Below are positions 3,852 to 63,790 of a stretch of 64,000 bases of DNA, in pieces. How positions within the stretch are numbered: the stretch's first letter is position 1; every line of letters begins with the position of its first letter. Source of the stretch: Cytophagales bacterium. GTDB lineage: Bacteria > Bacteroidota > Bacteroidia > Cytophagales > Cyclobacteriaceae. Under the pieces are notes generated by a model. That model did not search any database. It saw only the letters and a program-made list of their open reading frames with translations, and was not told the DNA's origin. The DNA is taken from positions 108,548 through 172,547 of the forward strand of contig JBBRBQ010000002.1 in NCBI GenBank assembly GCA_038205685.1. The letters run 5' to 3'. A program made the position numbers and the translations under genes.

Positions 3852-3987
3852 TTGATAATTAATTGGCGGCATCCCTCGTTCCTCGGGTCGGGCTATTCGT
3901 TGCAAGTCCGTCCCCGCACACATCCGGCACACTTCGGGCTTTCCACTGCTATCCCTTGCCGAAGCACTTCGCCAAGTAATTTATCAA
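3852..3987. repeat. GC-rich REP/MITE-like repeat, copy 1
   Basis: Arms cgggctattcgttgcaagtccg and cttcgggctttccactgctatccct are shared with 26703-26806; imperfect flanking inverted repeat ttgataattaattggcg / cgccaagtaatttatcaa. Confidence 0.75.
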
Positions 3988-23088: not shown

Positions 23089-23415
23089 TTATTTGAGTTT
23101 TGGATTTTGATGATGCCTTTCTTTATCTCTTGTATTTTTCTTTTCTAAATTTTTTTCAAAGGCTTTTGTAAGATCAACTCCAGTTTGATTCGCCAGACAA
23201 ATAACTACCCAAAGCACATCAGCCAACTCGTCACCTAAGTCGTTATTCTTATCTGATTCTTTTTCTGATTGCTCGCCATAACGCCTTGCCATGATGCGCG
23301 CCACTTCACCCACTTCTTCAGTGAGTATAGCAGTGTTGGTTAATTCATTGAAGTATCTAACGCCAGTAGTTTTGATCCATTGATCTACTTGTAGTTGGGC
23401 TTCTTTTAAAGTCAT
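23089..23415 (-). CDS. MazG-like nucleotide pyrophosphohydrolase
   Basis: LTEEVGEVAR and LGDELADVLWV motifs; 108 aa. Confidence 0.9.
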   Translation of the reverse strand: MTLKEAQLQVDQWIKTTGVRYFNELTNTAILTEEVGEVARIMARRYGEQSEKESDKNNDLGDELADVLWVVICLANQTGVDLTKAFEKNLEKKNTRDKERHHQNPKLK

Positions 23416-23702
23416 TAAGAATTAATTAACTGTTTTGCAGAGTGATGAATTCTGATTATTCCAACACTTTCTGAATTTACTTGGTAAACAACTCTATAGT
23501 TTCCAATTATTAATTCGCGGGTAGTTTCAATATTGAATTCTGGAACAACTCTTCCTAAATTAGGAAAGCTTTGAAGAATCTCTACACGTTCAACTACTTT
23601 AGAAATAAACTTATCAGCGTATACCTTTGAGTCTTTTGAAATATTCTCATAAATGCATCTCAAATCTTCTAAAGCAATTTCCGTCCAGATTATTTTTGCC
23701 AT
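23415..23702 (-). CDS. RelE/ParE family toxin
   Basis: IIWTEIALEDL, FPNLGRVVPE, RELIIGNYRVVY, IRIHH. Confidence 0.9.
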   Translation of the reverse strand: MAKIIWTEIALEDLRCIYENISKDSKVYADKFISKVVERVEILQSFPNLGRVVPEFNIETTRELIIGNYRVVYQVNSESVGIIRIHHSAKQLINS

Positions 23703-23887: not shown

Positions 23888-26863
23888 TTACATTCCCGTC
23901 ATCACAAAAGCTCCCCAATAATAAGGCTCTTTAAACTTCAGCATTAATTGAAGTTGGGCTTGTTTGAAGGCCTGTGTTTTATTGCCTGTTTTTATCCAGT
24001 TGTTATAAAAGTTAGTCATCAAGGCTTGAGTTGCTGCATCATCTACTTTCCATAAGCTCATCAACAAAGCTTTTGCACCAGCCACTTGAAAGGCGCGTTG
24101 CAAGCCATACACACCTTCGCCCGAGCGTACATCACCTAAGCCAGTTTCGCAAGCGCTTAGCACAATCAAATCTGTTCCATCTAAATTTAAGTTCATGGCT
24201 TCATAGGCCGTAAGTACTCCGTTATCATTGCTGGCTAAGTTGGGCAGTATCTCTCCCGACAAAGTCTTAGAAGCCCCCGCCAACAATAGCCCCGATCGCA
24301 AAAGCGGATTATCTTTTGCGCTTTCTTTATTAACGCCAACGCCACTACCTTCGGTATCTTTCATAAAATATCCATGTGTGGCAATGTGAACTAATGCAGG
24401 AGCAGCAATACCTTTAAGCCTCGCTTCCGTTGCTTCCTTCTGTTCATAACGATTAATTTGATAACCCGAAGTTTTAAGAATGGCATCGATACCATTTATC
24501 TCAATTTTTGTTCCCGGTAAAGCTGCCACGGCTGTGCCTCCATAATCAGGGAAGCCCAAAAGAAAAGCTTGCTTCTTCGAGGCGCTTACTTTTCTATTTT
24601 TAAGAGCAATTAAATCTTTCGAGTTGCCAATGTTGACTAGGTCGTATTGCTTGATCACAAAATCACCATCTGTTTTTTTCAACGTGTTGGGATTGATTTC
24701 ATTATACACGCCATCCGATGAAAGGTAAATTATCTTTTTCCCTTTTATGCTTGCATCAATCTTAGCCCAATATTGATCGTACGAATATTGATCGGCTACT
24801 TTTTGTTGAATGGCGTTTCTATAAAATTTTAAATACCGTGTCTCCAATTGATTGCCATTATCAAGCACAACCAACTTCGGTACAACCGCATTTTTAGTAA
24901 GCACCAATGCCGCATATTTTGAATCGGTGGTAAAGTTTTTATCGAATGTTCGTATGCGTATTAATTCCACCAATGCTTCCGTATCACCCAACAAAGAAGC
25001 CACTTGAGAAAAACTTGTTTTCTCTGCCGAGTAGCCTTGCGAAAACTCTGCTGACCGCTGTGATAGTGAACGCTCCAATGCATTTGCCTCCTGCTCTAAG
25101 GTAGCCAAGTCGATCTTTTGTTCTTTCAATTCATCTTTTGAAAGCGAATACAATCGCGCGAGTGTTTCTTTCTTATCAAGCCAAGCTGAGTAATCCTTTA
25201 TCAATTCAACATTGCCACTTTTAAAAATAGCTTGCTTCACCTTGTTGGTGTTACTTAGCAACAAGCCTTTGGTTGCCATTTGGTAATCATAGAGTTCTTT
25301 TACTATCTCAGGATTTGTAGCCACGGCCTCCAACCCGAAATTATAAAACCGTTGGAAGCGCGGCTGCAACACATCCCAATAGCTTGTCTTCTCAGCTTCA
25401 CTCATCGGTGGAAAATAGCGATTGATAAAGTCGATTGATTTATCCATAGCAGGTTGCAAATACGTTAACGCTTTCGCGAGATCGCCTTTTTTCCAATATA
25501 AAATACCCATGTCTTCTTGTCCTTTCACAAAGTCTGGATGATTTGCATCCAACGCATTGCTGCGAATGGTGAGCGATTCACTGAGGGTTTTCTCAGCTTC
25601 ATCAAAGCGGCCTTGCATGCGATAGAAATTCCCTAAGTCGTTGAGTACTTTTGCATAGTTAGGGTTTTGGTTACCAAACTTATCGCTATACACTTTGGCT
25701 GCTTGCTTAAAATACATTTCAACTTTATCGAGCTTATTCATTTGAATGTAGAGCAACGCCAAGTTATCAAGCACACCAGCATAATAAGGATTTTTAGTTC
25801 CTAATGCTTTTTCCAATTTCAAATAAATATTTTCCGCTTCTGTATATTTCGATCCAGCTTGATATAGCAACGCTAAGTTTGATTGCAGTGCAATCTGATT
25901 TTTTATTCCCTTGTTATTTCCTTTTTCAAGATAGTCGATCGCGGTTTGTATTTTTTGAATGGCTGGTTCAATTCTTCCAATCTTAAAAAATAAAATCGCT
26001 TCGTTGTTCAACACTACCGAATGTTCTTGACTGCCTTCGCCATATTGGCTTTTGATTAAATCACTTGCTTCTTTGAAGGCCATCTCAGCTTCGTTGTAGC
26101 GGGCAGTTTCTTGATACAACACGGCCAAGTTATTCAGCGAAGAAGAATATGCTTTGCTATTTTTACCCAATGATTGCTCCCGCAACCCAAGGCCTTCTTT
26201 CGTATATAATTCAGCAGTTGAGTAACGCCCCATGGTAGCATACAACAAACCCAAGTCGGCATTGGCTTTACTGTAGTTTATGTTTTCTTTTATGTTGTTC
26301 ACTTCAAAGCCAAGCTTGGCTTCCATTAGAATAACCTCAGCCTGTTTGTAGAAACGCTTCTGATAAAGTCCTTCACCCAGATCAATGGTGTTGCGCATCT
26401 TCTGCGCAGAGGTAACTTGGTTATCGTCTTTAAGATTATTGGAAAGTAAGTCAGCTCCTTTGGTAAAATTCTCGCCAGCATCTTGAATATTCATCATACC
26501 CGAGTTATCAATCACCGAAATGGCAAAGATAAAATCAGTTGAGTCCAGCTTATCACGGGCTTTATCCGATTTGTTTTCAAAAGCTTTCTTGCCTTTGTCT
26601 TGCGCTTTTTTGAGCAAGCGATCAAACTGTGCGTATGATTGAGTTGATAGGAACCAACAACAAATAAATAAAATCCAACTACACTTTATACATAGATTTC
26701 TTTTGGCGGCCGGGCGGGCTATTCGCTCCAAGTCCGCCCACGCGCTAACCCCACCCGCTTCGGGCTTTCCGCTTCTATCCCTGGCCGAGTGCGTGGCCAC
26801 TTCCAATCTATCCACCTGTTGTAAAGTATTCACTTTGTTATAGCTCATCGTCAATTCTATCAT
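23888..26863 (-). CDS. TPR + CHAT (caspase-like) protease, paralog 1
   Basis: TPR array, then VHIATHG and VLSACETG (His/Cys dyad); start codon overlaps the upstream stop (TAATG). Confidence 0.9.
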   Translation of the reverse strand: MIELTMSYNKVNTLQQVDRLEVATHSARDRSGKPEAGGVSAWADLERIARPAAKRNLCIKCSWILFICCWFLSTQSYAQFDRLLKKAQDKGKKAFENKSDKARDKLDSTDFIFAISVIDNSGMMNIQDAGENFTKGADLLSNNLKDDNQVTSAQKMRNTIDLGEGLYQKRFYKQAEVILMEAKLGFEVNNIKENINYSKANADLGLLYATMGRYSTAELYTKEGLGLREQSLGKNSKAYSSSLNNLAVLYQETARYNEAEMAFKEASDLIKSQYGEGSQEHSVVLNNEAILFFKIGRIEPAIQKIQTAIDYLEKGNNKGIKNQIALQSNLALLYQAGSKYTEAENIYLKLEKALGTKNPYYAGVLDNLALLYIQMNKLDKVEMYFKQAAKVYSDKFGNQNPNYAKVLNDLGNFYRMQGRFDEAEKTLSESLTIRSNALDANHPDFVKGQEDMGILYWKKGDLAKALTYLQPAMDKSIDFINRYFPPMSEAEKTSYWDVLQPRFQRFYNFGLEAVATNPEIVKELYDYQMATKGLLLSNTNKVKQAIFKSGNVELIKDYSAWLDKKETLARLYSLSKDELKEQKIDLATLEQEANALERSLSQRSAEFSQGYSAEKTSFSQVASLLGDTEALVELIRIRTFDKNFTTDSKYAALVLTKNAVVPKLVVLDNGNQLETRYLKFYRNAIQQKVADQYSYDQYWAKIDASIKGKKIIYLSSDGVYNEINPNTLKKTDGDFVIKQYDLVNIGNSKDLIALKNRKVSASKKQAFLLGFPDYGGTAVAALPGTKIEINGIDAILKTSGYQINRYEQKEATEARLKGIAAPALVHIATHGYFMKDTEGSGVGVNKESAKDNPLLRSGLLLAGASKTLSGEILPNLASNDNGVLTAYEAMNLNLDGTDLIVLSACETGLGDVRSGEGVYGLQRAFQVAGAKALLMSLWKVDDAATQALMTNFYNNWIKTGNKTQAFKQAQLQLMLKFKEPYYWGAFVMTGM
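26703..26806. repeat. GC-rich REP/MITE-like repeat, copy 2, inside the CHAT ORF 5' end
   Basis: ttggcggc, cgggctattcgctccaagtccg, cttcgggctttccgcttctatccct.gccga and cacttc-caa match the element at 3863-3975. Confidence 0.8.
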
Positions 26864-27774
26864 TAAAAATTATCACTTTCTCTATACGCGGCAATCACAG
26901 CCAATTCACCTTCTTTATCTTTTTTAGAATTGCCATGCTCCATTCCATACACTCCGTTATATCCTCTGCCTGAAATGTATTTGAAAATATTTTTATAATT
27001 GATCTCGCCAGTGCCAGGTTCATTGCGGCCAGGATTATCTCCTATTTGAAAATAAGAAATCTCATCCCAGCAACGTTCAATTGTTTTTATCAAATTACCA
27101 TCGTTGCGCTGCATGTGATAGATGTCGTACAAAATTTTACAAGCCGGACTTTTCACAGCTTTACAAATCATAAACGATTGGTCAGCTCCACGCAAAAATA
27201 ATTCAGGTGTATCGCTCAAAGGTTCAAGCACCATCACCAATCCATGTGGCTCAAATACTTCAGCACCTCTTCTCAATGCTTCAATCACATTAGCAGTTTG
27301 AATATCCATCGGCAGGTTTCTATCATAGAAGCCCGGCACAATAGTCATCCATTTTGCGTTTACTCGTTTGGCGGTATCAACACACGTCTTGCACGTCTTC
27401 ACAAAATTATCAATGAATTCCTTCTTTCCAGTGGTGAGCGATGTCTTCCAGTTTTCGCCACCATCTACCACAAACACGCCCATCGTCATGCCCAATGAAG
27501 AAAGCAACTTGCCAATTTTTTCTTGATCGGCCACGCTGCGCCCCAGCATTCCATTATCTTCAATGGCCTTAAAGCCTTGATCGTTCATCCATTTAATCTG
27601 ATCAGTAAAATCCGCACCGCCATGATTTTTAAACATGCCATCGTGTGGCGCAAAGTTGAGTTTAAAAGGCTTGGCCGCTGGCAAAGCTGCTGCTTGGGAT
27701 GTGAATGTAGACGATAGCGCAGCTACCGAAGCCGCACTGGCAAAAGCATTTTTAATAAAGTTTCTTCGTTGCAT
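26863..27774 (-). CDS. Tat-exported hydroxypyruvate isomerase-like TIM-barrel protein
   Basis: MQRRNFIK twin-arginine signal; MVLEPL, LYDIYHMQ, FQIGDNPGRNEPGTGEINY. Confidence 0.88.
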   Translation of the reverse strand: MQRRNFIKNAFASAASVAALSSTFTSQAAALPAAKPFKLNFAPHDGMFKNHGGADFTDQIKWMNDQGFKAIEDNGMLGRSVADQEKIGKLLSSLGMTMGVFVVDGGENWKTSLTTGKKEFIDNFVKTCKTCVDTAKRVNAKWMTIVPGFYDRNLPMDIQTANVIEALRRGAEVFEPHGLVMVLEPLSDTPELFLRGADQSFMICKAVKSPACKILYDIYHMQRNDGNLIKTIERCWDEISYFQIGDNPGRNEPGTGEINYKNIFKYISGRGYNGVYGMEHGNSKKDKEGELAVIAAYRESDNF

Positions 27775-63642: not shown

Positions 63643-63705
63643 TTTTTTAAAATAATTTAAACCCGCTGGCACATCGGGGAACGTACCATGCTTACAGTTT
63701 AATTT

Positions 63706-63790
63706 TTGCCTCCCTTCGTCCGCATTACCGGCATCAGGTTCTATGGGTATAATCTCAGCCCGTGTTTTTGGCACCCCTGCCCTAGACTTT
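63706..63790 (-). ncRNA. TPP riboswitch
   Basis: Minus strand reads GGGGUGCC...GGCUGAGAUUAUACCCAUAGAACCUGAUGCCGGUAAUGCGGACGAAGGGA, containing the canonical GCUGAGA, ACCC, ACCUGAU, GUAAU and CGnAGG elements. Confidence 0.95.

Follow-up and report, generated by a model that had tools for sequence, protein, structure and literature searches.

A copy of the Flavo-1 RNA element occupies the 5′ end of a TPR-CHAT protease gene in the stretch of DNA analyzed here, 64,000 nucleotides (nt) from a Cytophagales-type genome assembled from a sediment metagenome (assembly GCA_038205685.1, contig JBBRBQ010000002.1, positions 108,548 to 172,547; hereafter the window). Judged by comparison with related loci, the element is an insertion specific to the lineage of the window. 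We see an even chance that translation starts at one of two ATG codons upstream of the element (26848 or 26863), reads through it, and yields a signal peptide of 73-78 aa. On this reading, the element would be translated by accident, in a segment that the protein can spare, and such translation would not characterize the family of repeats. The new finding is a single in-frame instance for Flavo-1, along with several side observations, as in-frame short repeats are already known in other bacteria; the main value lies in a corrected identification of the repeat and in a concrete, testable locus. Four features recur below:

23888-26863, minus strand: TPR-CHAT protease gene, longest open reading frame (ORF), 991 aa.
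26863-27774, minus strand: upstream gene for a xylose-isomerase-like TIM-barrel protein, 303 aa (PF01261, 1.5e-30).
26701-26787, minus strand: complete Flavo-1 element (copy 2), 87 nt, boundaries accurate to about ±2 nt.
3882-3965, minus strand: intergenic Flavo-1 element (copy 1; RF01705, 32.7 bits, E 2.9e-5), with the next same-strand gene ~200 nt downstream.

The assignment of the gene is based on a Pfam match to the CHAT domain (PF12770, residues 696-990, 1.1e-57) together with the catalytic-type His and Cys motifs, HIATHG and LSACETG, both of which are present and intact in the translation. TPR repeats cover approximately residues 240-475 (TPR_12, 9.8e-36). The start codon at 26863 shares one base with the TAA stop of the TIM-barrel gene (TAATG); this overlap, pointed out in the original prediction, was confirmed in the sequence.

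On covariation evidence, and with a full-length covariance-model match below the curated cut-off, the repeat is a divergent member of the known Flavo-1 family, a structured, multi-copy, non-coding element of Bacteroidota. Flavo-1 was described in 2010 as a Bacteroidetes motif from comparative genomics and was considered not to be cis-regulatory (Weinberg et al., PMC2864571). In the Flavobacterium psychrophilum transcriptome, Flavo-1 matches lie sense or antisense to transcripts and many lie outside them, with no clue to function (PMC9723704). An Rfam scan places RF01705 at 26708-26790 of the minus strand (30.6 bits; E 8.6e-5 local, 2.8e-4 genome-wide) with model positions 1-76 complete. Both window copies span all 76 model positions, yet both score below the curated gathering score of 42, and a default scan therefore showed a TPP riboswitch only. 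When a 23-mer of the repeat was searched with up to 3 mismatches, exactly two matches were found in the window, the two copies, where 0 were expected. The genome as a whole has eight covariance-model matches to RF01705, to which BLAST adds at least two partial copies. Across the genus, Flavo-1 matches were found in 21 of 31 genomes (0-55 copies each). Copies above the gathering score occur in 8 of the 31 congeneric genomes and reach 61 bits, and scores in the genus extend without a gap between 25 and 61 bits.

Structural support comes from a 29-sequence alignment that includes copy 2. Compensatory changes were observed in 7 of 12 predicted base pairs, with almost none broken; a GC pair is replaced by UA in 11 sequences, for example, and a CG pair by UA in 9. 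The pairing GGAAAGCCCG/CGGACUUG of copy 2 corresponds to GGAAAUCCUUUUUG/CAAAAAGAUUG in other copies, and its conserved blocks GGGATAGAAGCGGAAAGCC and ACTTGGAGCGAATAGCCCG align to the Flavo-1 model consensus. Minimum-free-energy z-scores for both window copies, on both strands, were unremarkable (-1.2 to +0.5), and the support for the structure is thus covariation and not folding energy.

The element in the CHAT gene can be delimited in some detail. The 5′ strand of a closing helix (CGGCC, 26787-26783) is followed by the core GGGATAGAAGCGGAAAGCCCG...CGGACTTGGAGCGAATAGCCCG, the 3′ strand of the helix (GGCCG, 26711-26707), and a CCAAAA tail. By BLAST, other copies align from 26789 to 26715; the 73 nt that separate the element from the upstream stop are therefore unique sequence outside the repeat. 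We examined 36 copies from the genus (L003-L010, L032-L059) for reading frame, spacing, genomic context, and closing helix. In 32 of these copies, the 3′ tail contains a perfect reverse complement of the 5 nt that precede AGGGAU, as compared to 3-4 in three controls. Seven covarying types of this 5-mer were found (CGGCC, CGGCA, GCGGC, GCGTG, GCGTT, GGGCA, and GGGGC). CC(A/C)A follows the 3′ strand in nearly every copy, and ~2/3 of copies have a further small hairpin between the core and that strand. In copy 2, 26783-26787 pairs with 26707-26711.

The same junction in relatives carries no such element. Gene order is conserved (RsmB-like methyltransferase, TIM-barrel gene, CHAT gene), the TIM-barrel/CHAT synteny is retained in the two orthologous loci L031 (78% identical) and G010 (82% identical, the closest relative), and homologues of the flanking gene are named Cyclobacteriaceae, Cytophagales, or Bacteroidota. 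L031 has its CHAT ATG 13 nt beyond the upstream stop and a signal peptide of 21 aa. All of the 120 homologues listed are 927-960 aa in length, with signal peptides of 19-24 aa of the form MKxK...AQ/F (a slash within a peptide marks the predicted cleavage site), and tblastn matches in relatives begin only at approximately residues 62-70 of the query. Nineteen other related loci were found to have no Flavo-1 element at the 5′ end of the CHAT gene. The in-frame repeat to which the original prediction drew attention is thus without counterpart at these loci, and the homologues have short signal peptides.

Distances point the same way. Measured from the upstream stop, the first mature codon (Q79) comes after 233 nt in the window, as compared to 146 nt for G010 and 76 nt for L031. 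The excess over G010, 87 nt or 29 codons, equals the length of the element as delimited independently, from CGGCC at 26787 to the CCAAAA tail at 26701. G010 has only two canonical in-frame starts, an ATG and a GTG, which follow the stop at 8 and 65 nt, respectively. The insertion point in the window, at 76 nt from the stop, lies by position downstream of both. A search of genome contigs for the same junction elsewhere, using the pattern ATGTATAAAGTG-N(0-3)-AGTTGG..., returned no match, and a protein search found nothing closer than 82% identity.

The candidate start codons of the CHAT gene were scored with a context matrix built from 447 unambiguous starts of the window genome. These starts follow a Bacteroidota-type pattern: they lack a Shine-Dalgarno sequence, are enriched in A and depleted of G between -20 and -1, and in 60% of cases have A at +4. 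Percentiles in the list below refer to these true starts.

26861-26863, minus strand: first in-frame ATG; context score -0.56, 13th percentile.
26846-26848, minus strand: second in-frame ATG (MSYNKV...), 14 nt after the upstream stop; score -0.78, 12th percentile.
26833: GTG; score +1.34, 31st percentile.
26800: GTG; score -5.5, 0th percentile.
26729-26731, minus strand: in-frame TTG in the element, within the conserved GGACTTG block; score -9.68, 0th percentile.
26679-26693, minus strand: out-of-frame mini-ORF from ATG 26693 (ATG TAT AAA GTG TAG, MYKV-stop); score -3.65, 2nd percentile.
26687-26689, minus strand: in-frame ATA, candidate non-canonical start giving (M)KCSWILFICCWFLSTQSYA, 20 aa; score -2.67, 3rd percentile.

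Both upstream ATGs have usable A/T-rich contexts (12th-13th percentile), and ATG 26848 corresponds in position to the orthologue starts, which lie 13 nt (L031) and 8 nt (G010) after the stop. The original prediction stated that no in-frame ATG, GTG, or TTG separates the repeat (3′ end 26701) from the hydrophobic core of the signal peptide, and the sequence bears this out. Two candidates that it did not mention are TTG 26731, the only canonical start codon after the 5′ end of the element, and ATA 26689, which lies where orthologues start. The frame itself is unlikely to be open by chance: for 26862-26680, the probability of an open CHAT frame is ~0.016, an estimate obtained from shuffled flanks (0.134 and 0.37) and from the fact that copy 2 is open in one of its three frames, and the other frames carry 7 and 4 stops. 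A programmed +1 frameshift at GTG TAG T was dismissed upon inspection, as tRNA-Val cannot re-pair on UGU.

Downstream of the element, the features of an exported protein are conserved.

26630-26680, minus strand: signal-peptide hydrophobic core and c-region SWILFICCWFLSTQSYA, residues 62-78, with a predicted signal peptidase I site SYA/Q.

The predicted mature protein starts at Q79 (26627-26629; SWILFICCWFLSTQSYA/QFD). An N-terminal Gln is the typical product of signal peptidase I in Bacteroidota (the Q-rule). An AQ/F or AQ/L junction is found at the aligned position in the orthologues examined, and the combination of a hydrophobic core with a small-x-small site, likewise conserved in orthologues, would make this a Sec signal of the signal peptidase I type. 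The short, positively charged n-region usual for such signals is absent from the long form, in which 57-62 residues precede the core with a net charge of ~+3 and four K/R among the last 9; SGKPEAGGVSAWADLER is an example of a peptide from residues 1-57. A short signal-peptide form is possible only with a non-canonical or frameshifted start.

In the sequence of events that we propose, one Flavo-1 copy would have entered the 5′ end of the CHAT gene between the start region and the hydrophobic core, and the ORF would have stayed intact because the element's 87 nt are divisible by three and contain no stop in the frame that it entered. Ribosomes may initiate in the A/T-rich stretch at ATG 26848 or 26863, possibly coupled to termination at TAATG, and would then melt and read the 87-nt element to give a presequence with 29 element-derived residues. 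The internal hydrophobic core would direct Sec targeting, and cleavage at SYA/Q by signal peptidase I would remove the element residues. The mature protease would thus be unchanged, because the whole presequence is removed at this site. The structured element might also slow translation of CHAT, which is speculation. Whether the long form is in fact both translated and exported we would put at even odds. The lengthening of the n-region suggested in the original prediction is consistent with these data at the CHAT locus, where read-through of the in-frame element of 87 nt would give 57-62 residues before the core; coding compatibility as a property of the family is not supported (see below).

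Read-through into a long n-region is the most economical explanation of the locus, because the element lies downstream of every canonical in-frame start (TTG 26731 within the element apart) and is a multiple of three in length, so that a single in-frame insertion into the n-region accounts for everything in one step, while the alternatives need a second event and a coincidence. Several points weigh against it. An n-region of 57-62 aa is without precedent in this family, given the uniformly short signal peptides of the 120 homologues described above. The position of the out-of-frame ATG 26693 is precisely that of the start in orthologues, and the sequence has one nucleotide more than L031, which fits a lost start. 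Open frames through the element are not rare, as four other Flavo-1 copies lie in chance-open upstream frames. The Logan assembly, used below as a check of the sequence, was built from the same reads as the genome. Finally, the diverged 146-nt stretch offers only weak support for collinearity with G010 (34% identity without gaps, shuffle p 0.027), and the positional argument from G010 is suggestive, not proven, because the intervening sequence has diverged almost to randomness. Homology of the N-terminal extension between the window and G010 gave p 0.28 at the protein level and p 0.11 for local DNA alignment, alongside the ungapped comparison just given. Conserved coding of the extension was consequently not adopted, as no test was strong enough to claim it.

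Two of the alternatives turn on ATG 26693. If this codon is the ancestral start (MYKV-SWILF..., 21 aa as in L031), the Flavo-1 element would have landed in the intergenic spacer, 11 nt ahead of this ATG, and a genuine insertion of 1 nt would then have put the start out of frame, so that the original start was lost. The distance from ATG 26693 to the cleavage-site codon, 64 nt as compared to 63 nt in L031 (a real extra nucleotide), the resulting 21-aa signal peptide with the same SLQSYAQFDRLLKKAQ ending, and the normally intergenic position of the family all favor this account, which nonetheless requires two independent events in addition to an open frame of low chance probability (~0.016). By a base-composition estimate, an out-of-frame ATG arises within the expected window by chance ~20-25% of the time, and the remaining 930 codons of the CHAT gene are intact, catalytic-type motifs included. 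We regard loss of the original start as unlikely and attach the same low likelihood to its corollary, that the CHAT gene is a young pseudogene or poorly expressed and its long open frame a coincidence. The extra nucleotide could also be an artifact. The original prediction offered a 1-nt insertion error as its alternative. With an assembly or sequencing indel near 26681, ATG 26693 would in truth be in frame and the Flavo-1 copy simply intergenic. The one extra nucleotide relative to L031 would fit such an error, but positions 26300-27100 are reproduced without a single difference or gap (word depth 26.6) in an independent Logan contig of X1, the sediment metagenome run that is probably the source of the genome; no indel variant is listed, and the region near 26681 is not a homopolymer. 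With the independent assembly identical at 26.6x, we consider an error very improbable. Chimeric assembly at the repeat was rejected as unlikely, since both flanks are syntenic with relatives and other X1 contigs share only 32-36 nt of the repeat, with 2-3 mismatches.

The element could instead belong to a 5′ untranslated region, with translation starting at ATA 26689 ((M)KCSWILF...) or TTG 26731 (MERIARPAAKRNLCIKCSWILF...) and the upstream frame untranslated. The ATA start would give a 20-aa signal peptide of orthologous length, and ~21 of the 36 Flavo-1 copies lie upstream of same-strand genes in a leader-like position. Against this, the start contexts rank at the 3rd (ATA) and 0th (TTG) percentile of true starts, the TTG is part of a conserved paired block, and the competing ATG 26693, 4 nt upstream of the ATA, opens a 4-codon ORF. 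The other copies lie 70-160 nt before the gene ATG, not 11 nt, and an unused open frame would again have a chance of only ~0.016. Initiation at such a poor codon appears decidedly unlikely to us.

The original prediction went beyond the CHAT locus in proposing a Bacteroidota family of coding-compatible repeats, inserted recurrently in frame in the manner of Rickettsia palindromic elements (RPE). Its starting observations are sound: residues 27-51 of the CHAT ORF are the repeat-encoded ARDRSGKPEAGGVSAWADLERIARP, the matching frame of copy 1 reads ASARDSSGKPEVCRMCAGTDLQRIARPE, and both are stop-free in the same frame with arms of equal length. The identical core length that it reported holds for the two window copies and fails for the family. 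A 39-nt anchor spacing is common to both window copies and eight others, and the equal length of the two thus reflects a shared subtype. Among the 36 genus copies, the spacing between the conserved arms ranges from 20 to 59 nt and is distributed over the three values modulo 3 as 10, 15, and 11 copies. Because this spacing varies modulo 3, the 3′ arm is read as DLxRIARP, GLxTDSP, or RTCSG-stop in different copies. Of the 36 copies, 17 are open in the frame in question (codon GGA of GGAAA) and 19 have stops in it, with the other two frames open in 11 and 3; a base-composition estimate puts the expected open rate for GC-rich stretches of such length at ~44%. Variation among copies follows RNA pairing and not codons.

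Genomic context leads to the same conclusion. For the ~21 copies that precede a same-strand gene, 70-160 nt typically separate the element from a canonical ATG; others are located between convergent genes, and no other copy among the 36 was found inside a gene body. Four other copies are enclosed by chance-open 5′ extensions on the same strand, each with a canonical ATG 70-105 nt downstream. The proteome search that had been proposed as a check, run with the 35-aa repeat peptide against 1.84 billion representative proteins, gave 0 matches, with a sensitivity that is low for so short a query. The frame is therefore not kept across copies, and recurrent in-frame presence in conserved proteins, as in RPE, was not observed. 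With stops in 19 of 36 copies, arm spacings in all three phases, no second copy in a gene body, and no peptide match, we find a coding-compatible family scarcely credible. The analogy to RPE comes down to one accident, because the tests of frame, spacing, gene body, and peptide all fail.

A different kind of generality is conceivable, albeit doubtful. Flavo-1 has been catalogued as a small RNA (sRNA) since 2010 and may possibly be a mobile REP/MITE-like element, the unit of which would run from the closing helix to the CCAA tail (87 nt in the short form) and which would here have inserted cleanly in coding DNA and been translated within a ~75-aa signal peptide. A range of 0-55 copies within one genus is expected of a mobile or fast-turnover repeat rather than of a fixed sRNA gene. 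Together with the covarying closing helix, which extends beyond the Rfam model, and the apparently clean 87-nt insertion in a conserved junction, it leans towards a mobile structured repeat, and these three observations supply a concrete unit to test. If the proposal is true, the CHAT locus is a filled site to which an orthologue exactly 87 nt shorter corresponds. No link to a Y1 transposase was found: PF01797 has no match in G000, which has Flavo-1, and G022 has six Y1_Tnp matches and no Flavo-1. Y1_Tnp is present in four congeners and does not track Flavo-1 copy number. The similarity of ATGAGCTATAACAAAGTG and ATGTATAAAGTG, which flank the element, is not significant as a target-site duplication (shuffle p 0.70).

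For annotation, these results show that an ORF call can run through a Flavo-1 copy, and in four more cases in the genus such an extension is simply due to chance. At the CHAT locus, though, the long call may be real, and a start trimmed automatically would be wrong there. If the long form is made, it would provide a natural example of a Bacteroidota signal peptide that tolerates a GC-rich n-region insert of 29 residues. Knowledge of CHAT proteases is unaltered by these findings.

Some further observations concern the junction and its surroundings. The 5′ extension of G010 (L012:266-340) contains a 17-nt direct repeat, ACTTCTAATACAATAAA and ACATCTAATACCCTAAA, 69 nt apart and in frame (shuffle p ~0.05), as well as CCACAAG/CTACAAG mini-repeats; the CHAT junction seems prone to length change in that lineage too. 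In G011 (L020 ~1341-1530), a TIM-barrel/CHAT spacer of ~145 nt carries a 15-nt inverted repeat, gttgaacttgtcgaa...ttcgacaagttcagc, which is not Flavo-1 and thus points to a different insertion at the same junction. Directly 3′ of the CHAT gene, the window has an ORF for a ParE-family toxin (PF05016) and one for a MazG-like pyrophosphohydrolase (PF03819) at 23089-23702 of the minus strand; the orthologous locus of L031 has a DUF433/DUF5615 pair instead, followed by MazG. The TPP riboswitch of the window (RF00059) is at 63694-63788 of the minus strand and scores 59.2 bits, above the gathering cut-off.

Among known systems, the repeat resembles Flavo-1 RNA in having the blocks GAUnGnAGnGGAAA...UUGnAnCGnAnAGC, nested helices with compensatory changes, a Bacteroidota host, and multiple copies with no consistent gene association. 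It differs in that copy 2, at 30.6 bits, is below the cut-off of 42 and belongs to the GGAAAGCCCG/CGGACUUG subtype with a longer apical hairpin; in that copies from the genus carry a closing helix and CCAA tail, which are not paired in the match to the 76-position Rfam model; and in that copy 2 lies inside the only canonical ORF of a gene. The predicted export signal is like Bacteroidota Q-rule signal peptides of the Sec/signal peptidase I type in its hydrophobic core followed by SYA/Q and in the AQ/F or AQ/L junction shared with orthologues, whereas its n-region in the long form (~57-62 aa) stands against ~3-8 aa in the orthologous signals. With REP elements mobilized by the Y1 transposase RAYT, Flavo-1 has in common that it is short, structured, GC-rich, multi-copy, and mostly intergenic, with a copy number that varies widely (0-55 in congeners); unlike them, it has no Y1 transposase link, is longer, and has a branched structure. 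RPE recur in frame in many genes and are the classic case of in-frame short repeats. The CHAT locus is similar in that a short, structured, multi-copy repeat lies in frame and leaves the ORF unbroken, at a place where the protein can accommodate insertions. In contrast to RPE, only 1 of the 36 Flavo-1 copies examined lacks an alternative start, the frame is not conserved in the family, and no protein module was detected.

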